Source: Nostoc punctiforme PCC 73102
Lineage (GTDB): Bacteria > Cyanobacteriota > Cyanobacteriia > Cyanobacteriales > Nostocaceae
Length of the DNA stretch: 32,000 nt
Direction: 5' to 3'
Assembly (NCBI RefSeq): GCF_000020025.1
Contig: NC_010628.1
Coordinates: 2,580,001 to 2,612,000, forward strand
Made by a program: the position numbers and the translations under genes. The notes beneath the pieces are model-generated. The model ran no database searches, was not told the DNA's origin, and saw only the letters and a list, made by a program, of their open reading frames with translations. Positions 15,829 to 31,568 of the stretch are shown piece after piece. Positions within the stretch are counted from its first letter, which is position 1; the number at the start of each line of letters is the position of its first letter.

Positions 15829-15890
15829 GTTTCCCTTTGTGAGTAAGTCGAATGGCAATTGCTCAAATCGACACCTCGCCAAAAATTTTT
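15829..15890. promoter_or_regulatory. copy B of the duplicated candidate ECF-type promoter repeat
   Basis: Carries the same TGTCGA-N16-TCGAC on the minus strand (15873-15847). On the plus strand, AGTCGA (15846-15851), N16, then TCGAC (15868-15872) ends 30 nt before the sigma-factor ATG at 15903. Confidence 0.45.
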
Positions 15891-15902
15891 TCAAAGTCAG
15901 CT

Positions 15903-17446: not shown

Positions 17447-18793
17447 TTAGACGGCGAAAGGAAATGTCTCTGGTGGTTCAGTTGTTTCCCAAGAGGGAGT
17501 ACGATCGAGTGGTTGCACTCCCGTAGTGTCATCAATGTGGATTACAGCATCAAACTGGTCAGGTAGTCGAGCGTAGAAATAGTGGCTTTGACGCTCGGTT
17601 TCAGGCAGGTAAATTACACCGATAGCTCGCTCTAATCGCGGTTTTTCTAGTCCTGTAACTGCTTGATTTTCTTGTCGTAAATTCAGTAAAAACTGAGGTA
17701 AACCTACCTCATGAAATAAAGCTTCGTAACTGTCAGATAATGCTGGACGAACTTGTTTCAGTTCAGGTACACCACCCCAATCAGAAGCAGCCGTAACTGT
17801 ACCCGTATAAGTTGTAAAGCCTACAAGTACGGTATCATCACCATATTTATCTCGTACCAATTGCCCGACATTGAGTTCACCTGCAATTCCCATATCGGTT
17901 GCTCGTACATAGCCAAGGTGCGAGTTATGCGCCCAAACCACAATCTTTGAACGGTTTCCTTGCTTATCTAAATGGGCGGCGAGGCGATCTAGAGTTTCTG
18001 CCATGTGGCGATCGCGTATGTTCCAAGACAACACCTGTCCAAGAAACATTGAGCGGTAGTATTCCTCGGCGTTCTTCACCAGTCGGGCGTTCTCTTGGGC
18101 ATAGAAAAACTCGTCTTCTGCAACCTGACCATCACGCCCTGCATACTCCGCAATCCGGCGTTGCAATTCCATCAATTGATTAATAACTTCTTGCTCACAA
18201 GACTCGCTCAGACCAAAAGCAGCCGCATATCCATAAGCTTTGGTATCTTCTTCAAAGTGTTCCAAGCAAGAATATCGGTAGCGTGCCCGTTGTGCAGCTT
18301 CTGGGTCCACTTTGTCCAGGTAAGCAAGAACCTCGCTTATTGAAGTATACATACTGTAAAGGTCAAGCCCGTAAAAACCAACTTTGTTTCTATCCTGCGG
18401 TAAAGCATCATTATACTGACGTAGCTAACCGATGAAGTTCACCACATCTGTGTTGCGCCACATCCAAGTTGGAAAACCCTTGAAGCCTGCGATCGCTTCA
18501 GCCGGTGTAGGGTCGTTATTAATTCCCCGTACATATCGATTAATACGGTAGGCATCCGGCCAGTCTGCCTCCACTGCTATAGCCGTAAAGCCTTTTTCTT
18601 GAATCAGACGCTTAGTAATAAGAGCCCGTTGTTCATAAAATTCATGGGTGCCGTGAGACGCTTCACCAATCAATACAAAGCGGGCATTACCAATTAAATC
18701 CATGAGTGGGTCGTAGTCTTGGGCAGTACCTATCAGTGGATGTGCTACTTCATGTAATGCATCGGTTAGCTGTGTTGCTGTTGCTTCTGACAT
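17447..18793 (-). pseudogene. erythromycin esterase family protein interrupted by one in-frame TAG
   Basis: ORFs 18425-18793 and 17447-18352 are in the same frame. Codons 18353-18424 are open (LRQYNDALPQDRNKVGFYGLDLYS). The only interruption is the TAG at 18425-18427. Family motifs: FVLIGEASHGTHEFY, VVWAHNSHLG. Confidence 0.8.
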
Positions 18794-19014
18794 AATAGTT
18801 AGTTATCAAAAGTTTGTGTTCTTGATTATGATTTTAGATACTGTTAAAGGAGCGGTAGTTTTAACGCGATGAGCTACGCCCCACCCTAGGCGATCGTAGA
18901 TAATAAATCTAATGCTTCCAAATTGCTGTTATCATACTTTCATCTTAAAAGTGACTAAGCATATTATTCTCTTACTATAGTTAGAGAATTTAAACTATAA
19001 GCTTGCCAAAAAGT

Positions 19015-19245
19015 TTAATTTTTAAGTGTATTTTTTAATAAAACTGTTTTTTCACTCCAAGGTAAATCATGAATCGTTCGCCCATGATTTTGATGTATAC
19101 TTGGAGTGATTTTTCCACATGAAGGACAACTACAAGAGTTCACAAATTTTTCTATTGTTATAATTATTCCTATATCTTCTATCTCTTGACAATCTAATAC
19201 TTTCATATCGGGAAGATTCAGTATTTCCTCTACGAGAAATTTCAT
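19015..19245 (-). pseudogene. ISL3-family transposase N-terminal fragment
   Basis: EILNLPDMKVLDCQEIE...CPSCGKITPSIHQNHGRTIHDLPWSEK matches the zf-ISL3 N-terminus. The ORF ends after 76 aa with no DDE domain. Confidence 0.65.
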
Positions 19246-19670
19246 AGCGATGTCTACGACGGGCTACGCCTACGCCTAAAATTTTGGTAGATTACAATTT
19301 ATATTGTAGCATCAGCTCTATTTGATAATATTTGAAAGTTCGTAAACTACTGCAATATCTAAATTTTAACTATTTTTTATATTAAATTGTAGTTGTTAAA
19401 ATTTAATTGATTTTGATTTTTACCATAAAAATAGCGGAAAAAGCAAACTCTTGTGAGGATTGCTTTTCTCTTGAGCTTCAAACATGTCACAAATGTTCAA
19501 TAAGTTTTCTGTGCCAAGTCTATCGAGCTTTTCGTTTCCAGCTTTTCATCCGCACTAGTTGCACCTTTGACTGCCCGTTCGCTGATTTTGAAATGGTGAG
19601 AGGAATTAAAGCCTTGAGGAGTAATGCTTAAGACGATTTTTGAAGCAAAGGCATTAAGGATTAGTATTCA

Positions 19671-19742
19671 ATAATGGAATGTATCATTAGCTTCTGTCTT
19701 AGAAACTCCGAACAACATTCCTAATACTTGAAATGTCGGCAT
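19671..19742 (-). pseudogene. possible remnant of an IS5-like (HTH_Tnp_4 / DDE_Tnp_4 type) transposase
   Basis: The 24-aa peptide MPTFQVLGMLFGVSKTEANDTFHY resembles the HTH segment (..TF..LG..FGVS.S.AN..FH.) of plant-transposase-like IS5 transposases. It is a very short fragment. Confidence 0.3.
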
Positions 19743-19744
19743 CT

Positions 19745-19800
19745 GTAGTAAATAAAATAAAACATACTTCCCGCATTTCTTACAAGTGAGAAATGCGGGG
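19745..19800 (-). terminator. candidate rho-independent terminator (minus strand)
   Basis: An 11-bp perfect stem, CCCGCATTTCT (19770-19780) / AGAAATGCGGG (19789-19799), with an 8-nt loop. On the minus strand it is followed by a T-rich tract (GTTTTATTTTATTT). It lies 65 nt downstream of the 19865-20122 ORF. Confidence 0.5.
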
Positions 19801-19864
19801 GAGTCTATTCAAAAATCAAATAGGATTCCTATATACCTAAACAATAATAGCCTCAAGCCAATAT

Positions 19865-20122
19865 TTATCTACTGCGGCACGAAGTATTGAATACTAAAAC
19901 TAAAATTATTCCACCTATAAATGAGATGAAAAGTAGCATCCAAAGCATTCTAGCCTTATCGTTGACGATATCGTAAGAATCTTTCCTAAAGCTCAAAGAA
20001 AGCAAGCTAAAAGCAGCAAGACCATTTACTAAAAAAGAAATGCTTAATGCAAGAACTAGAACAGTACACATCACATCGCTTTGTAGATTCAGCATAATTT
20101 TTACTGGTAAAACTAAATACAA
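19865..20122 (-). CDS. hypothetical small membrane protein
   Basis: 85 aa with two strongly hydrophobic segments (CTVLVLALSISFLVNGLAAFSLLSL and LWMLLFISFIGGIILVLVF), followed by a terminator-like hairpin. No homology recognised. Confidence 0.4.
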   Translation of the reverse strand: MYLVLPVKIMLNLQSDVMCTVLVLALSISFLVNGLAAFSLLSLSFRKDSYDIVNDKARMLWMLLFISFIGGIILVLVFNTSCRSR

Positions 20123-20340
20123 TTAATCAGTATATTTAAACACAAAAAAATAGAAATCAAGGGCTAGGGCGATACCGATACTGTAAGGGAGGAATGGCAC
20201 TAAAAAAGCGCAAATCCTTAATATGATTAGCTTTTGGGTGTAGATGAACTTCAATATCATTAGGGGTTTCCAGAAAATAAAATGTCCAGCTGTCGATGAA
20301 AGCCGCTCAGTCCTTGGGTTTAGCCAAAATATATTTGATA

Positions 20341-20455
20341 CGGTGAAGCAGCGCGGTCTTCTCCCAAAGTGAGAGGCTAGCGCCTTTGCGGAGCGTCTAC
20401 GTAGAGAAGGGGGTTTCCCCCATGAGCGACTGCACCAAGCCCGGAGGGGCTGGGC
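20341..20455. repeat. GC-rich structured element embedded in AT-rich intergenic DNA
   Basis: About 115 bp of much higher GC than its flanks. Contains the GGGGGTTTCCCCC palindrome (20409-20421) and CTTCTC...GAGAAG pairing. Its 3' half loosely resembles the 56-nt insert at 10253-10308. Confidence 0.4.
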
Positions 20456-21006
20456 ATTTTATTATTACCTGTAGGTGCCTTAACAGCCGAGTCTGTTGAC
20501 TACTACGGGAACTCTATAACCATAGAGGTCGCCCTCCTCTGTTACCGTACAAAACTTATATGCACTAGTCTTTTGGTACATTCCATAACCTAATTGAGAA
20601 GTTATGCTTGCTCTGTAGACTGATTATTTAGAAATGCGATCGCACTTGGTAATTATTAATATCTTCAGTATTTTTTCGGATACTTTTAACAATAAATGTA
20701 ATATATAGTTAAAATGCTCAATAAATACGTAAGTGCCTCAGAGTACACTATTAATTTTGTTTTATTAATAAATCAACGAGTTATTGCCAGCATAATATGC
20801 AAATAAGTAGAAATAAATAATGAAAAGATGGCGTAAGTGGGTACAGAACGCAAAAATAGTGGATTACGGTTTCCATAACTCACCCTATAACAGTTTCCTC
20901 CTTACTTGAGTCAGTTAATTTTTAAGCGAAATCACCTTTAATTATGGTGAATTTTTAGCATAAACTAAAGTTTTTAATAATCCGATTTATAATTATCCAA
21001 ACATAT

Positions 21007-22926
21007 ATGAAACCTGTATTAATATCGCTTCTTGAACCATTAAATAAACTTTCGGCATCTGAACAAATGGTTTTAGAAAAAATAATGCAACCTGTTAGTT
21101 TTTCAGCCGGAACTTATATATTTAAAGAAGGTTCATTCGCGGATAGCTGTTATATCCTTGAAGAAGGTATAGTACGGATTGAAACAGCATCAGAAAGTAG
21201 TTCTAATTTTGTAGTTAATTATTTGGAAGCTGGGACAATTTTTGGAGAAATAAGCTTATTAGATAAAATGCCTCGTTCGGCTACTGCTTATGCCCAAACA
21301 AATATAATAGCTAAAAAAATACTAATTCAAGAGTTAGAAATATTACTAGAAACTTCGCCAAGAATATTGATTTGTCTCTGGGAAATGTTTAGAAAGGCTG
21401 CTCCACTTGGAGTTCGTTCTTTAAATGAACTTACAATTAAAAAAAATCACTTTGTGATAAACCCAGAAGTGGAAGTAATGTTAGATAAAGCTTTACTAGC
21501 TCAAAAAGAAATTCAAACTTGGTCTGAAGAACGTATAGATGCCTTATTACTGGTAATTGCTTCATCGATTGCACAACATGCCGAATCATTAGCAACAGCA
21601 ACAGTAAAGGCTACTCGTGTTGGGGATATTTTGGATAAAGTTACTAAGAATAAAATTGCTAGCTTAGGTATTTACCGCTCGCTGGTTGGCAAATCTGGAT
21701 GCGGGTTTATCTCGAATAATAAAATTAATAATGTTTGTGAAATAGCAAGTCCAATGGGAATTATTTTTGGAATGATTCCCATGACTAACCCAGTTGCAAC
21801 AGCGGTTTTTAAAGCTTTAATTTGTATAAAAAGTCGTAATGCACTGATTTTAAGTTTCCCACTTTCTACTAAGAATGTTGGCACGTTAGTTTGTGAAATT
21901 ATTCAGGAAGCTTTAATTCGGCAAGATGCACCTGTAGAGCTGATTCAGTGGTTAAAACATCGCAGTTCCCGCGAACAAACAGAAATATTAATGAAGCACA
22001 AAAACGTCTCTTTAATCTTAGCAACAGGAGGTGCGAGCATGGTGAAAGCTGCCTATAGTTCAGGAACTCCGGCAATTGGTGTAGGTCCTGCTAATACTCC
22101 TACCTTAATTTGTGCGGATGCAAATATTCAACATGCTGCCCGCACTATTATTGTAAGTAAATCATTTGATAATGGATTAATTTGTGGTTCTGAACATAAT
22201 TTGATAGTTGATGCACGCGTTAGGAAGAACTTTATTAAAGTATTAGAGCAAGAAGGCGCGGCAATACTTACGCATGAAGAAAAAAGCTACTTTAGCACAG
22301 TTGCTTTTGAAGATAAATCGAATCGATTGCAAGCAAAAATTATTGGTCAGTCAGCGGCTAAAATTGCCGTTATGGCAAATATTAAACGCGATTATCACAT
22401 TAAATTAATTATAGTCCCGAATGAATTTCTAAGTTTAGATAATCCCTATGCTTATGAAAAGATGGCACCGATATTGAGTTTATTTACAGTTCAAAATGAG
22501 ATTGAAGGTATAGACCTTTGTCGGTCGATACTACAGATAGAAGGGAAAGGACATACAGCAATTATACACACGAAAAATAAGGCAGTGGTGAGAAGATTTG
22601 GTTTAGAAATGCCAGCCAGTAGAATATTAGTAAATTCGCCGGGGGTACATGGAATCATAGGTCTTACAAGTGCTTTAGACCCATCCTTCACATTAGGGTG
22701 CGGCACATTTGGGGGAAATTCAACTACTGATAATGTTACTTATAGCAATCTTTTGAATTTAAAACGGGTTGCATATTATCAAGCACCAAAATTTTTAGAC
22801 CCAGAGATATTTAAAAATACATATCCCCAGTGGTTACTGCAATTGCTAAACTTATTAAACTTTTTAAAACTCAATGCTTTAGTGACATTTATATCGCAAC
22901 GAGTTTCGATTCAGTTGAGAAGATAA
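21007..22926 (+). CDS. cyclic-nucleotide-binding domain fused to an acylating (CoA/thioester-dependent) aldehyde dehydrogenase, AdhE-N-terminal/EutE-like
   Basis: The first ~125 residues form a CAP-type cNMP domain with an intact phosphate-binding cassette, FGEISLLDKMPRSATAYA (21241-21294). The rest aligns by eye with the AdhE ALDH domain: IFGMIPMTNPVATAVFKALICIKSRNALILS, LILATGGASMVKAAYSSGTPAIGVGPANTP, the catalytic-Cys motif FDNGLICGSEH (Cys codon 22183-22185), and GCGTFGGNSTTDNV. Confidence 0.85.
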   Translation: MKPVLISLLEPLNKLSASEQMVLEKIMQPVSFSAGTYIFKEGSFADSCYILEEGIVRIETASESSSNFVVNYLEAGTIFGEISLLDKMPRSATAYAQTNIIAKKILIQELEILLETSPRILICLWEMFRKAAPLGVRSLNELTIKKNHFVINPEVEVMLDKALLAQKEIQTWSEERIDALLLVIASSIAQHAESLATATVKATRVGDILDKVTKNKIASLGIYRSLVGKSGCGFISNNKINNVCEIASPMGIIFGMIPMTNPVATAVFKALICIKSRNALILSFPLSTKNVGTLVCEIIQEALIRQDAPVELIQWLKHRSSREQTEILMKHKNVSLILATGGASMVKAAYSSGTPAIGVGPANTPTLICADANIQHAARTIIVSKSFDNGLICGSEHNLIVDARVRKNFIKVLEQEGAAILTHEEKSYFSTVAFEDKSNRLQAKIIGQSAAKIAVMANIKRDYHIKLIIVPNEFLSLDNPYAYEKMAPILSLFTVQNEIEGIDLCRSILQIEGKGHTAIIHTKNKAVVRRFGLEMPASRILVNSPGVHGIIGLTSALDPSFTLGCGTFGGNSTTDNVTYSNLLNLKRVAYYQAPKFLDPEIFKNTYPQWLLQLLNLLNFLKLNALVTFISQRVSIQLRR

Positions 22927-22930
22927 AATT

Positions 22931-25873
22931 ATGAGTAATCCAATACGTGTTGTCTGTCTGGGTGGTGGCTATGTTGCCATGTGGTTAACGAAAGCACTGC
23001 GAAATGCCATTATATATAAAAAAGTTGAGATGATTGTTATCAGTCGGGATAATTATCATACTTATCACGGGTTTATTGCTGAGATGTTGACTGGGAAAAT
23101 TCAACCTAGTCAGGTTGCAAGTCCAGCTAGAAGAATATTTGAACCCGCATATTTTTATAATGCAGAAATTGAAAACATAGACGTTATCAAGCAAGTTATT
23201 ACTACTAGTCGTTCTCTAGATGGAAGGCAATATGAAGTATCTTATGACCATTTGGTGATTTCATTAGGTTCGGTGGATGACTTATCGAGGTATCCCGGTA
23301 TTGCTGAACATGCAATGAAATTAAAATCTTTTAATGACTGTTATAAAATCCGCAATCACATCATTCAAATGTTGGAATTAGCGGAAATTGAAACAGACAC
23401 AGAAGAGCGATCGCGTTTGCTAACTTTTGTAGTTGCTGGAGGGAATTATGGTGGTATTGAAGTTGCAACTGAGTTAGCTGACCATTTCCGTCTTTTAATT
23501 AAAAAGGAGTATCGGCAAATTGCACCTGATGAAATCAAGGTAATAGTTATTCATAGCGGAGAGCGTATTTTATCCGAATTAGTACGACGGTTTCCAGAGT
23601 TGGTAAGGTATGCTGAAAACTTTCTCCATGACGAATTCTCTAATTTAGAAATTATTACTAATACTCGTATTGTTGCCGCGACACCAGAAGAAGCAATACT
23701 TAGTAATGGAGAGCGAATTTCAACTCGGACAATTATTAGTTGTACGGGAACAGCACAATCACCTTTATTAGACAAACTACCGTTGGAACGGGATAAATAC
23801 GGCAAAATTGTTACAGATGAGTTTGTCCGAGTCAAAGGAACAAATAATGTTTGGGCAGGAGGAGATTGTGCTGCGGTTCCTTTACCAACAGGAGGTACTT
23901 GTCCACCCTTAGCTATTTATGCTTTGACTTGTGGCTATCAAATTGGTGGCAATATTCTACGTTCGATCGAAAGTAGAAAGCTAAAAGCTTATAAATTTAC
24001 TGGACTTGGGGATGCTGTTTCTCTGGGAAATCGTCACGCGATCGCACATTTAAAAGGTGTGCCATTATACGGGTTTAATGCTTGGGTTGCTTGGAGAATA
24101 GCTTTGTTTATTTTTGTTCCATCGTGGGAGCGAAAGCTTCGACTTCTAGTCGATTGGTCAATGTGGCCTTTTTTAGGTCGAGATATTATCAGCATGAAAG
24201 TGCAAGAAAAGCAAAGTTTAAAAAAAGCATATTTTCAGGCAGGACAAGTCATTGTTAAACAAGGAGATATTGGTCGTTGCTTGTATTTAATCCGCAATGG
24301 AGAGGTGGAAGTTTTACAAGAAATGTCGAATGGGGAAACAATTATTCAAACTATCGGTTCTGGCGAACACTTTGGTGAAACAAGTGTCATAGAAAATAGT
24401 CCTCACATTGCAACTGTCCGTGCTAAAACAAGCGTGCAATTAGTGGTGATTGATAGAGAAGAAGCATTATTATTGAGTAATTCTTTGTCTGTGTTTAACG
24501 ATACTAATCGCTTATTATCATCCGATACATTTGTCAAAGAAAATATTGATGAATATCATGCGATCGCATCAGACATCCCCAGAGGGAGTATCGCACCAGT
24601 TAACTCGGTCATGTCTGCGACTTTAGAAGCAGCTCCTTGGCAAGAGTTACCATCAAAAGCACCAGCAAGGATTGGTAGCAGCCGCATATTAACAAGATCG
24701 GAATCATCGCAGCCTAGTAAATTCGGTTTTTTGGGTCTAGCGTCAGTAGCTGCACTTATTGCCTTATCAAGTACTACTACCTACCTATTGACCTCTAAAA
24801 AAGTTACTACTCCCGAACCGAAGGACAATGCGATCGCATCCCAAAAGTTAGAAGTAATCGCACTAGGACGCTTGGAACCAGCTGGAGAAATTATATCTGT
24901 AGCTGGTCCTGTGGGGGAACGAATTGGACATTTGGAAGTTGCGGAAGGAGATAACGTTAAAAATGGACAAATTTTAGCTTATTTAGAGAGTTATAACGAA
25001 AGACTGCAAACCCGAAATTTAGCCGCAGCTAAAGTTCGTGAAATCCAAGAACAAATTAAAACTGATACATTACTGCGTCAAGTTGAAGCTGAAAAATCTC
25101 AGTCAGAAATTGAACAAGTTAATACACCCCAACTCCTACAAATTAAATCACAGCAAGCTTTGATTCGCAAAGCAGAAGTGGAATTAAGCGAGGTAGTTAA
25201 AACACGCGATCGCTTTCAATATTTGTCTCAAGAAGGTGCGATCGCCAAACAAGATTTTGATAATAAGCAATTAATTGTCCGTCAAGCTGAAGAAAATCTC
25301 AATCAAGCAAAAGCAACTTTAGAACAGTTAGCTCAAGCTCGCTCATCTAATATTCGCACTGCCCAAACAGCTTTTAAAGCTTCCCAAGTTAATTTAGCAA
25401 GAGTGGACAGTCATAGCGGACTAGAACCTGCCAAAAATAATCTTGCTTTAGGACAAGCTCAGTTGGAACGTTCAATTATTCGCGCTCCTCAAGATGGTAA
25501 AGTTCTCAAAGTTTTTGCCCACACTGGTGAAGCAATTTCTCAAAAAAGTATTTTACAGCTAGGTGATACACAGCAAATGTTTGCTGTTGCAGAAGTATAC
25601 GAAACCGATGTGAGTAAAGTCAAATTTGGTCAGGAGGCAGTTATTACTAGTCCAGCTTTTACTAAACCAATTAAAGGAACTGTTGATAAAGTTGGCAATC
25701 TCGTATTTAAAAATAACACGATCGGCGATGACCCAACAGCAGAAAAAGATGCCCGAATTGTCGAAGTCAAAATTCGTTTACAACAAAGCGAGCAGGTTGC
25801 TAATTTTAGTAATCTTCAAGTCGATGTCCGAATTCAGTTAAATAATACGGGGAAAATAGGTGCGAAACCGTAA
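22931..25873 (+). CDS. fusion protein: type-II NADH dehydrogenase (NDH-2)-like flavoenzyme + cNMP-binding-like domain + TM helix + DevB-family membrane fusion protein
   Basis: About aa 1-425 carry VVCLGGGYVA, VVAGGNYGGIEVATELAD, WAGGDCAAVP and an NDH-2 C-terminal membrane-association region (WRIALFIFVPSWERKLRLLVDW). About aa 430-545 form a CAP-type fold (VKQGDIGRCLYLIRNGEVEV...FGETSVIENSPHIATVRA). The TM helix FGFLGLASVAALIALSSTTTYLL lies at about 24722-24790. The remainder is HlyD/DevB-like (VIALGRLEPAGEIISVAG, coiled coil, IIRAPQDGKVLKV, ARIVEVKIRL). Confidence 0.85.
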   Translation: MSNPIRVVCLGGGYVAMWLTKALRNAIIYKKVEMIVISRDNYHTYHGFIAEMLTGKIQPSQVASPARRIFEPAYFYNAEIENIDVIKQVITTSRSLDGRQYEVSYDHLVISLGSVDDLSRYPGIAEHAMKLKSFNDCYKIRNHIIQMLELAEIETDTEERSRLLTFVVAGGNYGGIEVATELADHFRLLIKKEYRQIAPDEIKVIVIHSGERILSELVRRFPELVRYAENFLHDEFSNLEIITNTRIVAATPEEAILSNGERISTRTIISCTGTAQSPLLDKLPLERDKYGKIVTDEFVRVKGTNNVWAGGDCAAVPLPTGGTCPPLAIYALTCGYQIGGNILRSIESRKLKAYKFTGLGDAVSLGNRHAIAHLKGVPLYGFNAWVAWRIALFIFVPSWERKLRLLVDWSMWPFLGRDIISMKVQEKQSLKKAYFQAGQVIVKQGDIGRCLYLIRNGEVEVLQEMSNGETIIQTIGSGEHFGETSVIENSPHIATVRAKTSVQLVVIDREEALLLSNSLSVFNDTNRLLSSDTFVKENIDEYHAIASDIPRGSIAPVNSVMSATLEAAPWQELPSKAPARIGSSRILTRSESSQPSKFGFLGLASVAALIALSSTTTYLLTSKKVTTPEPKDNAIASQKLEVIALGRLEPAGEIISVAGPVGERIGHLEVAEGDNVKNGQILAYLESYNERLQTRNLAAAKVREIQEQIKTDTLLRQVEAEKSQSEIEQVNTPQLLQIKSQQALIRKAEVELSEVVKTRDRFQYLSQEGAIAKQDFDNKQLIVRQAEENLNQAKATLEQLAQARSSNIRTAQTAFKASQVNLARVDSHSGLEPAKNNLALGQAQLERSIIRAPQDGKVLKVFAHTGEAISQKSILQLGDTQQMFAVAEVYETDVSKVKFGQEAVITSPAFTKPIKGTVDKVGNLVFKNNTIGDDPTAEKDARIVEVKIRLQQSEQVANFSNLQVDVRIQLNNTGKIGAKP

Positions 25874-27020
25874 AAATGCTCAAACTTGGGATGGACCTGC
25901 ATTAGCATGGCTGAATTTAATTCACGCTAAAACTCGATTTTTTGTCGCACTCTCTGCAATTGGTTTCGCGGTTACTCTGATTTTTATGCAGTTGGGATTT
26001 TTAGGCGCTGTACTCAAAACAGCTACTTTCATTTACGATAATCTTAACTTTGACATTGTTTTAATTTCTCCAAAATCGCTCGAAGCTAGCTATACATTAC
26101 CATTTTCTCGGCAACGTTTATATCAAGCAGCAGCAATTCCTGGCGTTGCTTCGGTTGCACCTTTTTATATTTCATTTAAACAATGGCGCAATCCAGAAAC
26201 TAAGTTCACACGTTCAATATTGACAATGGGCTTTAATCCTAAAGATAAAGTATTTAAAGACCCAGAGATTAATAAATATAGACTAGAACTGCAAAGCCAG
26301 GATAAGTTATTAATCAACCGCTATTCACGACCTGAATTTGGTTCACGGCAAGTTGGTTTAAAGACTGAACTGGGAGGTCGTGATATTGAAGTAATTGGAT
26401 TTTTTTCGATGACAAATAGTTTGCGGGCAGATGGGACTGTCGTCATGAACGACCAAAACTTTATTCGTCTTTATACTGGTCGTTCATTTAATGATATTAG
26501 TTTAGGATTAATTAATGTAAACGATCGGGACAATATCAATAAAATTATCCAAAATCTAAAGCAAGTATTACCAAAAGATGTCGAAATTCTAAGCCGCGAA
26601 CAAGCTGGAGAAAGAGATAAAAACTATTGGCTAACATCAACTTCTATCGGCATAATTTTCGGTACAGGGGCAATCATGGCTTTTATTGTTGGAACTGTAA
26701 TAGTTTATCAAGTTCTTTATAGCGATATTACAGAGCATCTCAGCGAATATGCCACATTAAAAGCAATTGGTTACAGTAACTTTAGATTATCTAAAGTAGT
26801 TTTACAAGAAGCAGTTATTCTTGCTTTTCTTGGTTTTATACCTGGATTTTTTATTAGTTCAAGTTTATATATTATAACTCGTTTAGCTACAGGTTTACCA
26901 ATGGAAATGAGTTATGGACGCGCTAGTTTTGTTTTCATATTAGCTAATATTATGTGTTCTATATCTGCTTTATTGTCGTTACGCCAAGTTTTAACAACTG
27001 ACCCCGCTGATGTTTTATAA
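25860..27020 (+). CDS. DevC-family ABC exporter permease (FtsX/MacB-like), paralogue 1
   Basis: 386 aa. The N-terminal LAWLNLIHAKTRFFVALSAIGFAVTLIFMQLGF is DevC-like. It has a large periplasmic loop and a C-terminal FtsX-type 3-TM bundle (LKAIGYSN...). The GTG start overlaps the upstream stop by 14 nt. Confidence 0.85.
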   Translation: MRNRKNAQTWDGPALAWLNLIHAKTRFFVALSAIGFAVTLIFMQLGFLGAVLKTATFIYDNLNFDIVLISPKSLEASYTLPFSRQRLYQAAAIPGVASVAPFYISFKQWRNPETKFTRSILTMGFNPKDKVFKDPEINKYRLELQSQDKLLINRYSRPEFGSRQVGLKTELGGRDIEVIGFFSMTNSLRADGTVVMNDQNFIRLYTGRSFNDISLGLINVNDRDNINKIIQNLKQVLPKDVEILSREQAGERDKNYWLTSTSIGIIFGTGAIMAFIVGTVIVYQVLYSDITEHLSEYATLKAIGYSNFRLSKVVLQEAVILAFLGFIPGFFISSSLYIITRLATGLPMEMSYGRASFVFILANIMCSISALLSLRQVLTTDPADVL

Positions 27021-27022
27021 AT

Positions 27023-28207
27023 ATGCTCTTATTTAAGTTTTCTTTAGCTTGGATTAACTTAGTTCATAATAGACAACGCTTTATCACAGCATTAGGTGCA
27101 GTCGTTTTTGCCGTTGTACTAATGTTTATCCAATTAGGATTTCGGAATGCAATGCTTCAAAGTAGCGTCGAGTTTATCAATCGCTTGGATGCAGATTTAA
27201 TCCTAACTAGCCGTCATCGATACGTTAGCTTTTATGACTATACTTTTAAGAAAAATAGATTATATCAAGTCCAAGGATTTGATGGAGTGCAAGCAGTTTC
27301 ACCATTGTATTTAGCTATTGGGATTTGGAAAAATCAAGGGGGAGTACGTCAACGTCCCATCAGAATTTTTGGATATAACTTAAAATCTCAAACTTTTTCA
27401 ATTCCCGACATTCCTAATTATATTAATGCTTTACAGTTTCCAGATACTGTGATAGCAGATAAAAAATCTCGTCAAGATTTTGGCGATATTACACCAGGAG
27501 TAGAGGTAGAATTACTCGACAGAAAGGTGAAGATTATCGGAAACTTTCAGTTAGGGACTGATTTTGTTGCTGATGGAAACTTAATTACTAGCGACCAGAA
27601 TTTTCTAAGAATATTTCACGGACATCCTTACGGGGATTTTGGTAACATTCGTACTTCCTTAGATGATGTTGATTTTGGATTGATTAAGATTAAATCGCAC
27701 GATTTTAATGTCAAAAACTTGGTAGAAATCCTCAATAAATCTTTGCCTCCAGATGTTGTAGTCATGACTAAAAAAGAATTTATAGAGCAAGATATCAAGT
27801 ATTTTGATAAATCTACTCCCATTGGTTTTATGTTTGGTTTAGGAACAGTAATTGGCTTTTTTGTAGGCATAATTGTTGTTTACAATATTATTTATACAGA
27901 TATTAATAATAACTTACCTCAATACGGCACTCTCAGAGCCATCGGATATTCTAATTCATACTTGTTTGCCATTATTGTATTGCAGTCAGCAATCTTAGCA
28001 ATAATTGGTTTTTTTCCAGGCTTATTTGCAAGCATATTAATTTATCAGGTTATGGCAAAATCTACTGGCTTATTAGTGGAGATGAGTCTTGGTGTTGCCT
28101 CCTTGGTAGCAATTCTCACGATTTTTATGTGCATATTAGCAGGATTAATCGGTGCCAAAAAAATACAAGGACTAGACCCAGCAGAAGTATACGAGCAAAA
28201 AACATGA
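27023..28207 (+). CDS. DevC-family ABC exporter permease, paralogue 2
   Basis: 394 aa with the same architecture (LAWINLVHNRQRFITALGAVVFAVVLMFIQLGF ... LRAIGYSN). Starts 2 nt after the stop of paralogue 1. Confidence 0.85.
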   Translation: MLLFKFSLAWINLVHNRQRFITALGAVVFAVVLMFIQLGFRNAMLQSSVEFINRLDADLILTSRHRYVSFYDYTFKKNRLYQVQGFDGVQAVSPLYLAIGIWKNQGGVRQRPIRIFGYNLKSQTFSIPDIPNYINALQFPDTVIADKKSRQDFGDITPGVEVELLDRKVKIIGNFQLGTDFVADGNLITSDQNFLRIFHGHPYGDFGNIRTSLDDVDFGLIKIKSHDFNVKNLVEILNKSLPPDVVVMTKKEFIEQDIKYFDKSTPIGFMFGLGTVIGFFVGIIVVYNIIYTDINNNLPQYGTLRAIGYSNSYLFAIIVLQSAILAIIGFFPGLFASILIYQVMAKSTGLLVEMSLGVASLVAILTIFMCILAGLIGAKKIQGLDPAEVYEQKT

Positions 28208-29526
28208 GAATTGAACCAATAATTAAAGTTAGCAAAATTAATCATTATTACGGTACGGGACAACTGCGAAAGCAAATCTTGTTTGATATCAGTACAGAAA
28301 TTCAAGCCGGAGAAATTGTGATTGTAACTGGACCTTCGGGTTCGGGAAAAACTACCCTATTAAATTTAATTGGTGCGTTGAGTTCAGTTCAAGAAGGTAG
28401 CTTGACAGTTTTAGGACAAGAGTTAAATCGAGCTAATAATAAACTATTAGAAAATGTCAGAAAAAATATTGGTTTTATATTTCAAGCTCATAATTTACTA
28501 ACTTCTTTAACAGCTAGCCAGAACGTACAAATGTCATTAGCTTTGCATGGGGGTATTTCTAAACGAGAAGCTGAACGAAAAGCGCAAGCAATACTAGAAA
28601 TGGTAGGACTAGGCGAACGGGTTAATTATTATCCCAATCAAATGTCTGGAGGACAAAAACAAAGGGTAGCGATCGCACGCGCTCTTGTTACAAACCCTAG
28701 TGTCATTCTTGCGGACGAACCCACAGCTGCTTTGGATAAAAAAAGCGGGCGAGATGTTGTCGAAATGCTTCAATATCTAGCAAAACAGCAAGGTTGTGCA
28801 ATTTTATTAGTGACTCACGATAACCGCATCCTTGATGTTGCAGATAGAATTATTAGTTTGGAAGATGGATTTCTTACCTCATCAAAAAATACATCTTCAA
28901 ATAATTCTCATCGGTTGGCAAGTTTAAAAGGTGAGTTGATTAATCATGTTGAAGATTTGTCATTAAAAGATTTTTTAAGTTTACTTCAGCAAGTGACAGG
29001 AGAATTTCAAAGTTTTTTAAGCTTAATCGATAATGAAGCTACAGGAAAGTGTTTAGAAGAAATTATCGAGGCAATAACTTTGAAAATTACACATTTATTA
29101 CAAGCCGAGCGAAGCACTATTTTTATAGTAGATGATACTTCTGGAAACTTGTGGTCAGAAATTATTCAGAGTAATCGCAAAAAAATTTTAAAAGTTGGCA
29201 TAACTGCTCATTTTGGTGTTGCTGCTCATGTGGCAGCAACTAGAGAATGCTTGAATATTCCCATAGCTTTGCAAGATTACCGCTATAGCCCAGCAATTGA
29301 CGAACAAACTGGATATCAAACTCGAAATATTTTATGCTTACCAATTTTAAATAGTCAAAGTAAAGTCTTGGCAATTTCACAAGTTTTAAATAAGATTGGT
29401 AATAACTGTTTCGATCGTAAAGACGAGCAGCTATTAGGTGAATTCTCTCAACAGATTTCAGCTATTTTTGATATGTGGTGTCATTTACAAAAATTACATA
29501 AAACCTCAATAAGTGGTAAATATTAA
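28204..29526 (+). CDS. DevA-family ABC ATPase with C-terminal GAF domain (NKFDE-type)
   Basis: The ATG at 28204 overlaps the upstream TGA (ATGA). Walker A GPSGSGKTT, signature MSGGQKQR, Walker B ILADEPT, H-loop VTHD. After about aa 225 comes a GAF-like domain (AERSTIFIVDD..LWS...GVAAHVAATRECLNIP..YRYSPAIDEQTGYQTRNILCLPIL) with NKIGNNCFDRKDE at 29389-29427. The 5' extension in the ORF track (from 28129) lies inside the upstream gene. Confidence 0.85.
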   Translation: MRIEPIIKVSKINHYYGTGQLRKQILFDISTEIQAGEIVIVTGPSGSGKTTLLNLIGALSSVQEGSLTVLGQELNRANNKLLENVRKNIGFIFQAHNLLTSLTASQNVQMSLALHGGISKREAERKAQAILEMVGLGERVNYYPNQMSGGQKQRVAIARALVTNPSVILADEPTAALDKKSGRDVVEMLQYLAKQQGCAILLVTHDNRILDVADRIISLEDGFLTSSKNTSSNNSHRLASLKGELINHVEDLSLKDFLSLLQQVTGEFQSFLSLIDNEATGKCLEEIIEAITLKITHLLQAERSTIFIVDDTSGNLWSEIIQSNRKKILKVGITAHFGVAAHVAATRECLNIPIALQDYRYSPAIDEQTGYQTRNILCLPILNSQSKVLAISQVLNKIGNNCFDRKDEQLLGEFSQQISAIFDMWCHLQKLHKTSISGKY

Positions 29527-29527
29527 C

Positions 29528-31249
29528 ATGATTATTTGCCCGGATTTGGCTTCAGAAAAATTTGCAACATTAATTGAACTGCTCCGCTTTAGAGCATTTT
29601 CGCAACCCGACGAAATAGCTTATACATTTTTACTAGAGGGTGAAAAAGATACAGTTAACTTAACTTATGCACAATTAGATAAACAAGCTCAAACTATTGC
29701 CGCTTATTTGCAATTCAAAGAGCAAGTTCTGCTGTTGTATCCACCGGGCTTAGAGTATATTGCAGCTTTCTTCGGATGTCTGTATGCTGGTGCGATCGCA
29801 GTTCCAGCTTATCCACCTCGTCCAAATCGCTCTTTACAACGACTTCAGTCAATTGTTGCTGATGCAGAGGCTAGTATAGTACTGACGAATACGGCTGTTC
29901 TCTCAAATTTAGAGCGACAGTTAGCGGAATTACCTGATTTAAGAGCATTAAATTGGCTAACTACTGATAGTACTGATAATAATTTAGCCAACAAATGGCA
30001 GCAGCCAGAAATAGATAGCGATTCCCTAGCATTTTTGCAATACACATCAGGTTCTACGGGTACACCCAAGGGAGTAATGGTTAGTCATGGAAATTTACTC
30101 CACAATCAAAAGATGATTCAGGCAGGTTTTCAAAATACAGAGAAAACCATTATTGTTGGCTGGTTGCCCTTATATCATGATATGGGTTTAATTGGTAATG
30201 TACTGCAACCTTTGTACTTGGGTGTTCGCTGTATTCTCATGTCTCCAGTTGCTTTTCTGCAACGTCCAATTCGCTGGCTAGAAGCAATTTCCCGCTACCA
30301 GGGTACTACCAGTGGTGGCCCTAATTTTGCTTTTGACTTGTGTATGCGAAAAGTGACTCCTCAACAACTATCTGCTCTCGATTTAAGCAGTTGGAATGTA
30401 GCTTTTAATGGAGCAGAACCTGTACGTGTAGAAACGATTGAAAAGTTTTCATCCACCTTTGCATCCTGTGGTTTCCGAAAAGAAGCTTTTTATCCTTGTT
30501 ATGGGATGGCAGAAACAACTTTATTTGTTTCTGGTGGAATAAAAACAGATGCACCCGTTTACATCACAGTTCGAGAAGATGAATTAGCGCAAAACCGCAT
30601 CGTTTTAGCACAAGGAACCGAAGGAACTCGAACTTTGGTCGGTTGTGGGCAGACTTACATTAATCAAGAAATTGCGATCGCAAATCCTGAAACTTTAATT
30701 CGCTGTGCTGCTGATGAAGTTGGCGAAATCTGGGTTGCGGGTTCGAGTATTACTCAAGGTTACTGGAATCGTCTCGAACTAACCGAGCAAGTATTTCGGG
30801 CTAATCTTGCTGACTCGAAAAAACAGTTTTTCCGCACGGGAGACTTGGGGTTCCTGCATAATGGTGAATTATTTATTACTGGTCGTCTAAAGGATTTAAT
30901 TATTATTCACGGTCGCAACCATTATCCTCAAGACATTGAGATGACTGTAGCCGATAGTCACGAGGCATTAATACTCGGAGCCGGGGCAGCTTTTACAATT
31001 GATAGCAAAGGGGAAGAAAGATTAGCGATTGTACAAGAAATAGACCGTCATTACAGAAACTTAGATAATGATGCTGTTACCGAAGTGATTAGGACTGCGA
31101 TCGCACAGCAGCATGAATTACAAGTCCATGCGATCGCACTGATAAAAATGGGTAGTATTTGCAAAACGTCGAGTGGCAAAATTCAGCGTCATGCCTGCCG
31201 AAATGCTTTTATTAACGGAACCCTAGAGTTATGGGGTAAAAATAAATAA
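29528..31249 (+). CDS. fatty acyl-AMP ligase (FAAL)
   Basis: The ATG at 29528 lies 1 nt after the upstream stop. LQYTSGSTGTPKGVMVSHGNLLHN, WLPLYHDMGLIG, GGPNFAFDLC, YGMAETT, FRTGDLGF and SSGKIQR are typical of FadD32-like FAALs rather than acyl-CoA synthetases. Confidence 0.85.
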   Translation: MIICPDLASEKFATLIELLRFRAFSQPDEIAYTFLLEGEKDTVNLTYAQLDKQAQTIAAYLQFKEQVLLLYPPGLEYIAAFFGCLYAGAIAVPAYPPRPNRSLQRLQSIVADAEASIVLTNTAVLSNLERQLAELPDLRALNWLTTDSTDNNLANKWQQPEIDSDSLAFLQYTSGSTGTPKGVMVSHGNLLHNQKMIQAGFQNTEKTIIVGWLPLYHDMGLIGNVLQPLYLGVRCILMSPVAFLQRPIRWLEAISRYQGTTSGGPNFAFDLCMRKVTPQQLSALDLSSWNVAFNGAEPVRVETIEKFSSTFASCGFRKEAFYPCYGMAETTLFVSGGIKTDAPVYITVREDELAQNRIVLAQGTEGTRTLVGCGQTYINQEIAIANPETLIRCAADEVGEIWVAGSSITQGYWNRLELTEQVFRANLADSKKQFFRTGDLGFLHNGELFITGRLKDLIIIHGRNHYPQDIEMTVADSHEALILGAGAAFTIDSKGEERLAIVQEIDRHYRNLDNDAVTEVIRTAIAQQHELQVHAIALIKMGSICKTSSGKIQRHACRNAFINGTLELWGKNK

Positions 31250-31307: not shown

Positions 31308-31568
31308 ATGAAAAACAAAAATTTAGAAGCAATTCAAGCTTGGTTCATTTCTTACATTGCTGATTTATTAGAAATAGAACCCGCACAGATAGACATCCAT
31401 AAATCCTTTGATAGCTATGGCTTAGATTCAGTTAGTGCTATTACTGTTGTAGGGGATTTAGAAGATTGGTTGGGGTTTAGTATTCCTTCTGAAATAGTTT
31501 ACAAATATCCCAGCATTGAGGCTTTGAGTCAACATTTAGCTCAAAATAACGGTTCTACCGATCCCTGA
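31308..31568 (+). CDS. acyl carrier protein (phosphopantetheine-binding)
   Basis: 86 aa with a GLDSVSAI motif providing the Ser attachment site within a typical ACP helix-II context. Starts 58 nt downstream of the FAAL gene. Confidence 0.8.
   Translation: MKNKNLEAIQAWFISYIADLLEIEPAQIDIHKSFDSYGLDSVSAITVVGDLEDWLGFSIPSEIVYKYPSIEALSQHLAQNNGSTDP

Follow-up and report, generated by a model that had tools for sequence, protein, structure and literature searches.

In tripartite pumps, the periplasmic adaptor is usually regarded as a passive link whose cytoplasmic tail is short, and pumps of the MacB type are thought to load their substrates from the periplasmic side. Type II NADH dehydrogenases (NDH-2) share a quinone-site motif, AQxAxQxG, with glutamines Q317 and Q321 in the Caldalkalibacillus thermarum enzyme. 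In the NDH-2-like reductase FSP1, the membrane tether is a myristoyl group. The locus described here, from the genetically tractable model strain Nostoc punctiforme PCC 73102, joins an NDH-2-like enzyme and an exporter adaptor in one protein. It lies in a window of 32,000 nucleotides (contig NC_010628.1, positions 2,580,001 to 2,612,000), and all features below are on its forward strand.

Architecture of the fusion protein

The open reading frame at 22931-25873 runs from an ATG start, as a single uninterrupted frame, through 980 codons, and its product exactly matches ACC80743.1 / WP_012408744.1 / UniProt B2J643. This product comprises an NDH-2-like flavoenzyme, a degenerate cyclic-nucleotide-binding (CNB) domain and the adaptor of a DevBCA-type exporter. 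The triple architecture proposed in an earlier note is borne out by profile matches to Pyr_redox_2, cNMP_binding and TIGR02971. Its topology is also coherent, as the note had it: enzyme and CNB domain precede the sole transmembrane (TM) helix and the adaptor follows it. The first two parts correspond to a family of unfused proteins termed NDH2L-CNB.

The flavoenzyme

Residues 1-420 (22931-24190) are NDH-2-like in fold and motifs and have a dN/dS of 0.06-0.09. In a profile search, Pyr_redox_2 matches residues 6-314 (E 4.5e-29), while Pfam NDH2_C matches residues 364-418 with 26.7 bits, slightly under its cut-off of 27.7. The AlphaFold prediction that the earlier note had called for was run and gives a confident NDH-2 fold (AF2 pLDDT about 85-97), in which both dinucleotide domains are confidently NDH-2-like. 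The best Foldseek matches are to genuine NDH-2s (E 1e-31 to 1e-28), with TM-scores of 0.76-0.90 and rmsd of 2.4-3.9 Å to Ndi1 and to the C. thermarum, mycobacterial and S. aureus enzymes. The structural alignment spans whole NDH-2 chains (TMt up to 0.90), and thereby the C-terminal membrane-binding domain. This amphipathic region is predicted at about residues 364-418, where helices 381-395 and 399-415 bear the family-invariant W385, W388, R389, R401, D408 and W409.

The motifs are less uniform. The first dinucleotide motif, G11-G-G-Y-V-A16, is an accepted GxGxxG variant, but the second, G170-G-N172-Y-G-G175-I-E177, has Asn in place of the central Gly. A GDCA motif is present at residues 311-314. 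The quinone-site motif is replaced, the aligned segment being A328-I-Y-A-L-T-C-G335; of 62 family members, 51 have Ile at position 329 and none has Gln. Nor is there an acidic residue, the basis of NADH preference, at the end of the second beta-strand of the NADH domain, where alignments with both 9mqy and 4nwz place His208. His208 is invariant across the NDH2L-CNB family and suggests a different nicotinamide preference, possibly for NADPH. Because the second motif, the quinone-site motif and the NADH-selecting position are all non-canonical, NADH:quinone activity is only putative, and the flavoenzyme may not act as a quinone reductase. The description of this part as a complete NDH-2 is thus upheld for the fold, C-terminal segment included, and not for all of the signature residues.

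These deviations could mark a degenerate, non-catalytic scaffold. However, they run through the whole unfused family, where 41 of 62 relatives have Asn at position 172 and the other 21 have Gly, and they are therefore not decay after fusion. The residues that bind FAD and NAD(P)H are not lost on alignment: all family-invariant ones are kept, and the invariants of the family as a whole include G11, G13, G170, G175, E177, D312, C313, W388 and R389. With the strong constraint and the confidently predicted fold added, a scaffold is very improbable.

The unfused family and the origin of the fusion

NDH2L-CNB is a widespread two-domain family found otherwise mostly in high-GC soil bacteria. Its unfused members are about 540-560 aa long and include P0040 of Nocardioides antri (recorded as "cyclic nucleotide-binding domain-containing protein") and P0032 and P0054 of Gemmatimonadota. 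The nearest are about 57% identical to the fusion and lie in loci of 62-73% GC. A search with the whole fusion returns 8,607 cluster representatives at E <= 1e-10, a count that mixes relatives of NDH-2 and of DevB. The fusion goes back to an ancestor of a small Nostocales clade, in which an NDH2L-CNB gene became continuous, in frame, with the devB of a DevB-DevC-DevC'-DevA-GAF cassette.

Patatin-like lipases with CNB domains flank NDH2L-CNB genes in 10 of 28 loci, compared to none of 56 loci of CNB-less NDH-2 (p = 5e-6). Among the fusion partners of the family are the NAD(P)H enzyme ApbA, an AhpC/TSA peroxiredoxin and an MIP channel, and its members often carry FHA, TPR or similar purely signalling modules.

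The CNB domain

Residues of about 425-515 (24203-24475) form a CNB-fold domain, placed by profile match and alignment. PF00027 (cNMP_binding) matches residues 434-511 with 76.4 bits against a cut-off of 27.5, and the AF2 model shows a beta-roll and C-helix at pLDDT 85-94. The domain is less constrained than the enzyme and adaptor halves (dN/dS 0.18-0.35), and its phosphate-binding cassette is degenerate, reading FGETSVIENSPHIATVRA where the family consensus is FGE..VF...RRTATVRA. The Glu...Arg-[Thr/Ser]-Ala contacts to cNMP are incomplete in the PCC 73102 protein, in which E483 is present but is followed by H492 and I493. The phosphate-binding Arg at position 492 is His in all five fused proteins, compared to Arg in 61 of 62 unfused ones; the Thr/Ser at position 493 is Ile in four of the five, and the Glu at position 483 is Gln in two. 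As judged from these alignments, the loss of cNMP contacts is specific to the fused clade. The "CAP-fold sensor" of the earlier note consequently has the fold but, in this clade, lacks the cNMP contacts. Any control by cyclic nucleotides would more likely act through two other domains of the operon, namely the intact CNB domain of the aldehyde dehydrogenase and the GAF domain of DevA.

The adaptor, transmembrane helix and linker

Residues 642-980 (24854-25870) are a periplasmic DevB-type adaptor, as family model, DevC and DevA neighbours, predicted fold and TM anchor all indicate. TIGR02971 matches residues 642-968 over its full length (profile 1-327 of 327) with 294.2 bits against a cut-off of 129, and the dN/dS of this half is 0.08-0.13. 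With a 65-sequence alignment, AF2 models residues 641-974 at pLDDT >90 as a barrel-sandwich (lipoyl-like) domain, a very long alpha-hairpin with helices of 80 residues, and a beta-barrel; a membrane-proximal domain is not evident in this half. Foldseek matches it to MacA and EmrA (E 1e-20 to 1e-19). The nearest unfused DevBs are 58-60% identical and lie in DevB-DevC-DevC'-DevA-GAF cassettes.

The single TM helix is predicted at residues 598-620 (FGFLGLASVAALIALSSTTTYLL), which correspond exactly to the nucleotides at which it had been placed before, 24722-24790. It has a Kyte-Doolittle peak of 1.69 (19-residue window), is the only strongly hydrophobic stretch of 19-23 residues outside the amphipathic region of the enzyme, and aligns with the TM segment of unfused DevBs, although AF2 models it with low confidence. 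In 59 of 64 of the nearest unfused DevBs, translation starts at the equivalent of residue 579, to which the ancestral DevB start also maps, and therefore only some 10-20 cytoplasmic residues precede their TM helix. The fusion has about 597. For this adaptor subfamily, then, the N-terminus is indeed unusually long. Long cytoplasmic sensor N-termini are not unique to it, however, as a DevB-like protein with a receiver domain (P0192) exists.

The fusion junction lies around residues 530-579, within a variable linker at residues 516-597 (24476-24721). The linker is probably disordered, with a modelled pLDDT of <50; its dN/dS is 0.32-0.51, and orthologues differ in it by indels that keep the frame and span at most 10 residues. 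Between residues 516 and 640 there is a single Met, M561 (nt 24611), from which internal initiation could yield free DevB as well.

Distribution and selection

The identical protein is found on 73 contigs, the 8.23-Mb PCC 73102 chromosome among them. The same domain order, which the earlier note had suggested looking for in other genomes, recurs in at least six other Nostocales assemblies at 84-97% identity, each time in the same operon. Full-length fused relatives are found in N. punctiforme UO1, Calothrix sp. PCC 7507, Desmonostoc muscorum FACHB-395, a Calothrix MAG, an uncultured-cyanobacterium MAG and several Logan assemblies. The fused architecture is nevertheless restricted to one small Nostocales group: it forms one cluster at 50% identity among 1.84 billion cluster representatives, an exhaustive search of which found no second protein covering both halves, and just 2 of the 185,579 genomes that serve as species representatives encode it.

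The fused orthologues are 970-980 aa long, and every length difference is a multiple of three. Synonymous divergence across the gene reaches dS 0.4-1.0, and both the enzyme half and the adaptor half are under strong purifying selection (dN/dS 0.06-0.13 over the two, at a dS of 0.4-0.7). The fusion is thus a genuine single polypeptide kept by selection. That an error of sequencing, assembly or frame had joined two or three genes is a negligible prospect and was rejected: the same reading frame appears in independent complete genomes, drafts, MAGs and read-level assemblies, the linker indels stay in frame, and no point was found in favour of an error in this observation, which was first made in one window. 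The constraint on both halves, together with the retained FAD/NAD(P)H-site residues, excludes artefact and decaying scaffold alike.

The surrounding operon

The fusion gene is the second of seven genes whose order is conserved in two other fused-gene loci (L001 and L002). Upstream, at 21007-22926, is a CNB domain joined to an acylating aldehyde dehydrogenase (ALDH) of the CoA/thioester type (cNMP_binding at residues 30-115, Aldedh at 153-545), which stops 4 nt before the fusion gene. Its CNB domain has a canonical PRSAT phosphate-binding cassette, and its ALDH part reaches 448 bits with the AdhE N-terminal model and 422 bits with the EutE-type ACDH model, each time short of the equivalog cut-off. 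Along its whole length the protein has 46% identity to the CNB-ALDH that adjoins NDH2L-CNB in N. antri, and it has 44% to the C-terminal part of P0107, an NDH2L-CNB-CNB-ALDH fusion. The two genes that adjoin in Nocardioides are thus one protein in P0107, an arrangement taken as functional coupling of neighbours where the enzyme is read as working at the exporter.

Downstream are two DevC permeases. The first, of the MacB-type FtsX kind (25860-27020; TIGR01185, 360 bits against a cut-off of 290), overlaps the 3′ end of the fusion gene by 14 nt, as it also does in L001; the second lies at 27023-28207 (315 bits against 290). They are followed by a DevA ABC ATPase with a C-terminal GAF domain (28204-29526; TIGR02982, 352 bits against 296; GAF, 50 bits), whose probable start codon, the ATG at 28204, shares nucleotides with the stop codon of devC2. 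The same DevA-GAF is present in L001, L002 and an unfused cassette (L012). A fatty acyl-AMP ligase (FAAL; 29528-31249; AMP-binding, 242 bits; FAAL subfamily models, 380-460 bits) and a stand-alone acyl carrier protein (ACP; 31308-31568; PP-binding, 62.7 bits; phosphopantetheine site GLDSVS) complete the operon. Both are kept in L001 and L002, and the ACP gene is the last conserved one. The window contains neither a gene for a TolC-like outer-membrane factor nor a link to heterocyst glycolipid genes.

Possible functions of the fusion

The reading that we favour, tentatively and at somewhat short of an even chance, is that an active NAD(P)H flavoenzyme is bound to a plasma-membrane lipid exporter and couples the redox chemistry of lipids to export. 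A covalent tether to the plasma membrane, made up of the TM helix and the periplasmic adaptor, would place a putatively active, membrane-peripheral NAD(P)H-dependent enzyme of the NDH-2 type at the cytoplasmic face of the pump, in several copies if the fused DevB oligomerises like MacA and DevB. FAAL would load a fatty acid onto ACP, the cNMP-regulated acylating ALDH would interconvert thioester and aldehyde with NAD(P)(H), and the NDH2L part would exchange reducing equivalents with NAD(P)H on one side and a membrane acceptor on the other, so that the lipid redox chemistry of the operon would be coupled to export by way of an outer-membrane duct of the TolC kind. Where thylakoid and plasma membranes coexist in a cell, the tether would likewise settle on which of them the flavoenzyme works. 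In favour of this reading are the conservation of fusion and operon under selection, the intact enzyme half, the fusion partners and patatin and ALDH neighbours of the family, and the role described for adaptor N-termini in PMC8277102. Several observations weigh against this. The quinone-site glutamines are absent and His208 stands at the NADH-selecting position; a linker of 80 disordered residues imposes little geometric constraint for true channelling; and periplasmic loading of MacB-type pumps gives no obvious need for a nearby cytoplasmic enzyme. Outside Nostocales, association with pumps is indistinguishable from background: 3 of 28 NDH2L-CNB loci have RND pump and adaptor genes no more than 10 kb away (in one case directly upstream on the same strand), compared to 1 of 56 CNB-less loci (p = 0.11). 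Free DevB may also arise from M561, and confinement to one narrow clade is also what a neutral accident would leave.

Such an accident, the loss of a stop codon between co-transcribed genes tolerated as a nearly neutral fusion, is unlikely but a serious contender. NDH-2-type enzymes are already membrane-peripheral, so fusion would add only co-expression and fixed stoichiometry; the architecture is rare in the extreme, the linker resembles a translated spacer in its variability, indels and disorder, and the closest DevB cassettes function without an enzyme. Yet the fused state has persisted to dS 0.4-1.0 in Nostoc-, Desmonostoc- and Calothrix-labelled genera with no re-splitting, the whole operon is conserved with it, and the CNB domain changed specifically after fusion, which suggests functional adjustment. 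Distinctly less likely is a gating role, in which NDH2L-CNB would mainly sense the NAD(P)H/NAD(P)+ or quinone redox state, with turnover incidental, and would switch DevCC'A assembly or ATPase activity through the cytoplasmic N-terminus of the adaptor. According to section 7.2 of PMC8277102, adaptors of the ABC/MFS type cannot recognise substrates or assemble their complexes without the N-terminal region in the cytoplasm. In P0192 a receiver domain takes the place that the enzyme has here, sensor domains abound in the operon (CNB on ALDH, GAF on DevA), and the NDH2L-CNB core is often joined to signalling modules. Against gating, the enzyme half is as constrained as any enzyme and keeps all its catalytic-site invariants, the one clearly sensory part is what decayed, and a long, fast-evolving, disordered linker is a poor conduit for conformational signals.

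A broader proposal concerns the family itself and is something of a long shot: by analogy, NDH2L-CNB may be the flavoenzyme of a new cyclic-nucleotide-regulated bacterial system for damaged membrane lipid. The patatin lipase would cut out acyl chains, the acylating ALDH would handle lipid aldehydes, and the NDH-2-like NAD(P)H enzyme would keep a membrane quinone or peroxiredoxin reduced, with a logic like that of eukaryotic anti-ferroptosis defence (FSP1, iPLA2-beta, ALDH). The proposal draws on gene neighbourhood, on fusion partners and on the ferroptosis-like death reported in cyanobacteria (PMC8624678).

Significance

The adaptor of the fusion bears on its cytoplasmic side a selectively maintained, predicted redox enzyme of 500 residues. 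It thereby offers a natural test case for physical coupling of metabolism and export through an adaptor, and a functional handle on the large unfused NDH2L-CNB family, whose conserved partners (cNMP-patatin, cNMP-ALDH, cyclase) point to a possible cyclic-nucleotide-controlled lipid chemistry. If the lipid-damage proposal is true, the Nostocales fusion would be a "Rosetta stone", with the lipid product extruded through a plasma-membrane tripartite pump. Since PCC 73102 is tractable, these predictions are open to direct testing.

Comparison with known systems

The fusion resembles NDH-2 in overall fold and C-terminal membrane-binding domain and keeps the first GxGxx[GA] motif, the GD(C)A motif and the Glu after the second motif. 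It differs from NDH-2 in its identity of only 21-26%, in having AIYALTCG for AQxAxQxG, His208 for Glu/Asp and GGNYGG as second motif, in its marginal NDH2_C match and in its appended CNB domain. FSP1, an NDH-2-like NAD(P)H:quinone reductase, shares the superfamily fold (Foldseek E about 1e-20, phmmer E 1e-9), a much weaker match than those to true NDH-2s, and is likewise tethered to the membrane by an added element, for which the fusion has its TM adaptor. The bacterial neighbourhoods (patatin lipase, ALDH, peroxiredoxin fusion) may echo eukaryotic lipid-peroxide defence, and a quinol-antioxidant likeness would be an idea only.

Over residues 1-530 the fusion is 48-58% identical to its unfused NDH2L-CNB relatives and agrees with them in the order of the two domains and in the motifs specific to the family. 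Those proteins end about 25-30 residues past the CNB domain, keep the cNMP-binding Arg and Thr, and usually neighbour CNB-patatin, CNB-ALDH, ApbA and cyclase genes, where the fusion neighbours an ABC exporter. In its C-terminal 340 residues, the fusion is a full-length DevB-family adaptor like DevB of Anabaena sp. PCC 7120 (alr3710; DevBCA/HgdD glycolipid exporter), with DevC permease and DevA ATPase genes directly 3′ as in DevBCA and an adaptor fold shared with EmrA and with MacA of MacAB-TolC. Unlike DevBCA, its operon has two DevC paralogues and a DevA with a GAF domain, and its adaptor has the long cytoplasmic region. Its closest counterpart in this last respect is P0192 (639 aa, metagenomic), which also places a globular cytoplasmic domain before the TM helix, in that case a phospho-receiver of about 110 residues and not an enzyme; sensory N-termini thus do occur on DevB-like adaptors.

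Architecture and conservation of the fusion

Positions 22931-25873 (+) of the window hold one uninterrupted ORF of 980 aa, in which four profile-matched elements follow one another in frame. These are Pyr_redox_2 (residues 6-314; E 4.5e-29), the NDH-2 C-terminal domain (residues 364-418; 26.7 bits, marginally below the Pfam cut-off of 27.7), a cNMP-binding domain (CNB; cNMP_binding, residues 434-511; 76 bits), and a complete DevB-family adaptor (residues 642-968; TIGR02971, profile positions 1-327 of 327), which scores 294 bits against a cut-off of 129. A hydropathy scan gives residues 598-620 (nucleotides 24722-24790) as the sole TM-like segment. This bears out both the triple architecture and the helix position that an earlier note had read from the sequence. 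Homology assigns the enzyme to the cytoplasm and the adaptor to the periplasm. The translation is identical to ACC80743.1 / WP_012408744.1 / UniProt B2J643 of N. punctiforme PCC 73102, and database entries carry no more specific name than "FAD-dependent oxidoreductase" or "NADH:ubiquinone reductase (non-electrogenic)".

The fusion recurs at full length (970-980 aa, 84-97% identity) in N. punctiforme UO1, Calothrix sp. PCC 7507, and Desmonostoc muscorum FACHB-395, as well as in a Calothrix MAG, an uncultured-cyanobacterium MAG, and several read-level assemblies. In the orthologue alignment, the linker (residues ~516-597) is variable, and its indels, none longer than 10 residues, are all in frame. 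Nei-Gojobori comparison of the window gene with two orthologues (synonymous divergence 0.4-1.0) gives dN/dS of 0.06-0.09 for the flavoenzyme region, 0.08-0.13 for the DevB region, 0.18-0.35 for the CNB domain, and 0.32-0.51 for the linker. The low values in the flavoenzyme and DevB regions mean that both halves have been under strong purifying selection while fused. The independent full-length relatives, in-frame indels, and low dN/dS rule out an assembly or frameshift artefact and a decaying relic. The earlier note had proposed looking for the same domain order in other genomes, and its recurrence in several Nostocales assemblies likewise excludes an artefact.

The architecture is rare. In an exhaustive phmmer search of 1.84 billion 50%-identity cluster representatives, one cluster (P0002) alone spans residues 1-980, and all remaining hits span either ~1-530 or ~600-980. 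Among 185,579 species-representative genomes, a pattern scan returned two loci only, both fused and both already known; it used a single protein and missed the source genome, and is thus a weak guide to unfused cyanobacterial relatives. The single full-span cluster and the two scan loci confine the architecture to one narrow Nostocales lineage. A literature search found no paper on the fusion protein or its architecture.

The sole Met within residues 516-640 is M561 (nt 24611), which precedes the TM helix by 37 residues; 5/5 fused orthologues have a Met at or near this column. No obvious Shine-Dalgarno sequence precedes it. Internal initiation at M561, which would yield a free DevB of ~420 aa, is possible. 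Two proteomics papers on N. punctiforme list neither B2J643 nor its neighbours in their supplements, which is uninformative either way on a 108-kDa product.

The flavoenzyme and cNMP-binding domains

Residues 1-530 share 48-58% identity with members of a large family of ~545-aa proteins in which an NDH-2-like flavoenzyme (NDH2L) is joined to a CNB. These NDH2L-CNB proteins occur in Gemmatimonadota, Actinobacteria (e.g. Nocardioides), and soil metagenomes, at loci of 62-73% GC, and no unfused cyanobacterial member was among the top hits. AF2 models residues 1-520 with pLDDT ~85-97. True NDH-2s top the Foldseek search of the PDB with NDH2L (Ndi1 and the C. thermarum, mycobacterial, S. aureus, and P. 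falciparum enzymes; E 1e-31 to 1e-28, TMt 0.76-0.90, rmsd 2.4-3.9 A), while NADH oxidases, sulfide:quinone reductases, and FSP1 lie about ten orders of magnitude behind in E. Motif 1 is GGGYVA and motif 2 is GGNYGG, with position 172 being Asn in 41/62 and Gly in 21/62 unfused relatives. Within the family, neither E177 (the Glu that follows motif 2) nor the GDCA motif varies.

The complete NDH-2 described in the earlier note holds for the whole fold, but not for two residue signatures: AIYALTCG is found where NDH-2s have the quinone-site motif AQxAxQxG, and an invariant His208 stands where the second beta-strand of the NADH domain normally closes with an acidic residue. Post-fusion decay of NDH2L was considered and rejected, since the motif deviations occur family-wide. 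Because of these family-wide deviations and the two failed signatures, the domain is labelled NDH-2-like and not certified as an NDH-2. The enzyme may prefer NADPH or use a different acceptor, and its NADH:quinone activity is putative.

The claim of a CAP-fold sensor likewise stands for the fold and not for the ligand contacts, which are changed in the fused proteins. In the phosphate-binding cassette, Glu (E483) is present in 61/62 unfused relatives, compared to Glu in 3/5 and Gln in 2/5 fused proteins. The Arg equivalent to R492 (61/62 unfused) is His in 5/5 fused proteins, and the Thr/Ser at 493 (57/62 unfused) is Ile in 4/5. Together with the 3- to 4-fold higher dN/dS of the CNB domain, these changes indicate that canonical cNMP binding was relaxed or lost after fusion. 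Small-molecule control is probably not exerted through the fused CNB. The upstream ALDH of the operon retains a canonical FGE...PRSAT cassette, and this intact cassette and the GAF domain of the ATPase DevA make small-molecule control still plausible.

The adaptor and its exporter family

The C-terminal part is a DevB family member in every feature that could be tested. The closest unfused DevBs (381-395 aa, 58-60% identity) lie within DevB-DevC-DevC'-DevA-GAF cassettes, one of which adjoins a PKS/NRPS cluster; DevC and DevC' are permease paralogues. In the alignment, 59/64 unfused DevBs start at the position of fusion residue 579, and therefore have just ~10-20 cytoplasmic residues ahead of the TM helix, a short N-terminus of the kind that had been called normal for such adaptors. 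The spans of both parent families place the junction at about residues 530-579, a segment resembling an old C-terminal tail joined to spacer.

When the fusion was aligned jointly with both parent families in MAFFT, DevB relatives were misplaced onto the N-terminal half; this alignment was discarded, and the two halves were modelled from separate alignments. With the 64-protein DevB alignment, AF2 models residues 641-974 at pLDDT >90 as a barrel-sandwich, a very long hairpin, and a beta-barrel, for which MacA and EmrA are the best structural matches. In the full-length model, residues 521-680 and most of DevB are uninformative, since coverage of that half is limited to five sequences. The TM helix lacks a confident model in both AF2 jobs.

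Long cytoplasmic N-termini are not unique to the fusion among adaptors of this type, since the metagenomic protein P0192 (639 aa; L009 359-2278) carries a response-regulator receiver domain, followed by ~130 residues and then a DevB-like adaptor. Its contig and that of P0128, the closest unfused DevB, are too short for gene context. Another adaptor relative, P0285, is annotated [quoted passage not shown], which suggests that earlier annotators had noticed the CNB-DevB combination; no follow-up was found.

The operon and its surroundings

The fusion belongs to an operon of seven tightly packed genes, with gaps or overlaps of a few nucleotides, and gene order is identical at two other Nostocales loci (L001 and L002). 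A CNB-acylating ALDH (21007-22926, +), whose catalytic Cys lies in SFDNGLICGSEHN, precedes the fusion, and DevC (25860-27020, +), DevC' (27023-28207, +), DevA-GAF (28204-29526, +), FAAL (29528-31249), and ACP (31308-31568) follow it. The C-terminal GAF domain of DevA spans ~140 residues. DevA-GAF is common to the fused operons (L001 15244-16560, L002 5519-6850) and the nearest unfused DevB-DevC-DevC'-DevA cassettes (e.g. L012 13782-15104), and a literature search found no paper joining DevBCA with GAF and none on DevA-GAF. The whole subfamily, with the unfused cassettes L012 and L014 among its members, retains two tandem DevC paralogues instead of one, which suggests a heterodimeric MacB-type permease.

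The DNA upstream of the operon includes remnants of transposases, an erythromycin-esterase gene that is split, and an AT-rich stretch of ~2 kb. The latter (18800-21006, ~2.2 kb, 33-37% GC) contains short ORFs only, one of which (19015-19245, -) has the appearance of a putative transposase N-terminal fragment. The erythromycin-esterase-family gene is divided between 17447-18352 (-; profile 86-358) and 18425-18793 (-; profile 1-57), and is probably a pseudogene. An ECF-type sigma factor gene with a DUF6596 C-terminal domain (15852-17156, +) lies in a 1-kb stretch of 57% GC amid DNA of 34-47% GC, is flanked by an IS4/5 transposase (14486-15286, -), and may have been horizontally acquired. Consensus scans for promoters and terminators gave counts no higher than in shuffled sequence, and an Rfam search of the window gave no match.

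Partners of the unfused family

The association of NDH2L-CNB with a CNB-acylating ALDH is conserved across phyla. The CNB-ALDH of the window is 46% identical to one that adjoins NDH2L-CNB in Nocardioides antri (L007 4428-6230), and the metagenomic P0107 (1143 aa; L003 2351-5782) is an NDH2L-CNB-CNB-ALDH fusion. Twenty-eight distinct NDH2L-CNB loci were surveyed, with 56 CNB-less NDH-2 loci as comparison; ALDH was present in 4/28. CNB-patatin/NTE-type lipases adjoin 10/28 (L003, L004, L007, L015, L017, L018, L019, L035, L036, and L038) compared to 0/56 (p = 5e-6). Class III cyclases occur at three of the 28, close to the patatin gene (L007, L019, L038). An RND pump with adaptor lies within 10 kb at 3/28 compared to 1/56, which is not significant (p = 0.11). 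Across Actinobacteria, Gemmatimonadota, and soil metagenomes, NDH2L-CNB and CNB-patatin look like parts of a lipid module under cyclic-nucleotide control that has yet to be described. Other fusion partners of NDH2L-CNB are an AhpC/TSA peroxiredoxin (P0156, 730 aa), a MIP (aquaporin-type) channel (P0137, 794 aa), an ApbA/ketopantoate-reductase-like domain (P0016/P0007, 911 aa), one to three FHA domains (P0139/P0151/P0134), and TPR arrays (P0154/P0165). A literature search found no paper on a family combining NDH-2 and CNB.

Possible role and comparison with known systems

The fusion is real, rare, uncharacterised, and experimentally tractable, and its function is one that we can only infer. The adaptor could act as a covalent tether that would hold an NAD(P)H-dependent membrane flavoenzyme at a plasma-membrane pump, beside the fatty-acid-activating FAAL/ACP and the thioester/aldehyde-interconverting acylating ALDH. 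Nicotinamide-cofactor turnover would then be co-localised with lipid export, and in a thylakoid-bearing cell the flavoenzyme would be confined to the plasma membrane. This model is offered tentatively, as a fair possibility short of a probable one.

According to a review, ABC/MFS-type adaptors cannot recognise substrates or assemble without their cytoplasmic regions (PMC8277102), so that the N-terminal position on the adaptor is functionally sensitive. A near-neutral fusion of neighbouring operon genes is a somewhat less likely rival to tethering. Redox-state gating of the pump, which the earlier note had raised, is less likely still.

Taken together, the unfused family's partners (patatin lipase, ALDH, peroxiredoxin, MIP channel, and pumps) recall the components of lipid-peroxide defence in eukaryotes, where quinol is regenerated by FSP1, an NDH-2-like enzyme. 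A form of cell death resembling ferroptosis has been reported from a cyanobacterium (PMC8624678). By analogy, the NDH2L-CNB family might be a bacterial counterpart of this defence, a speculation that we hold to be improbable. If it were so, the Nostocales fusion would link the family to active lipid extrusion.
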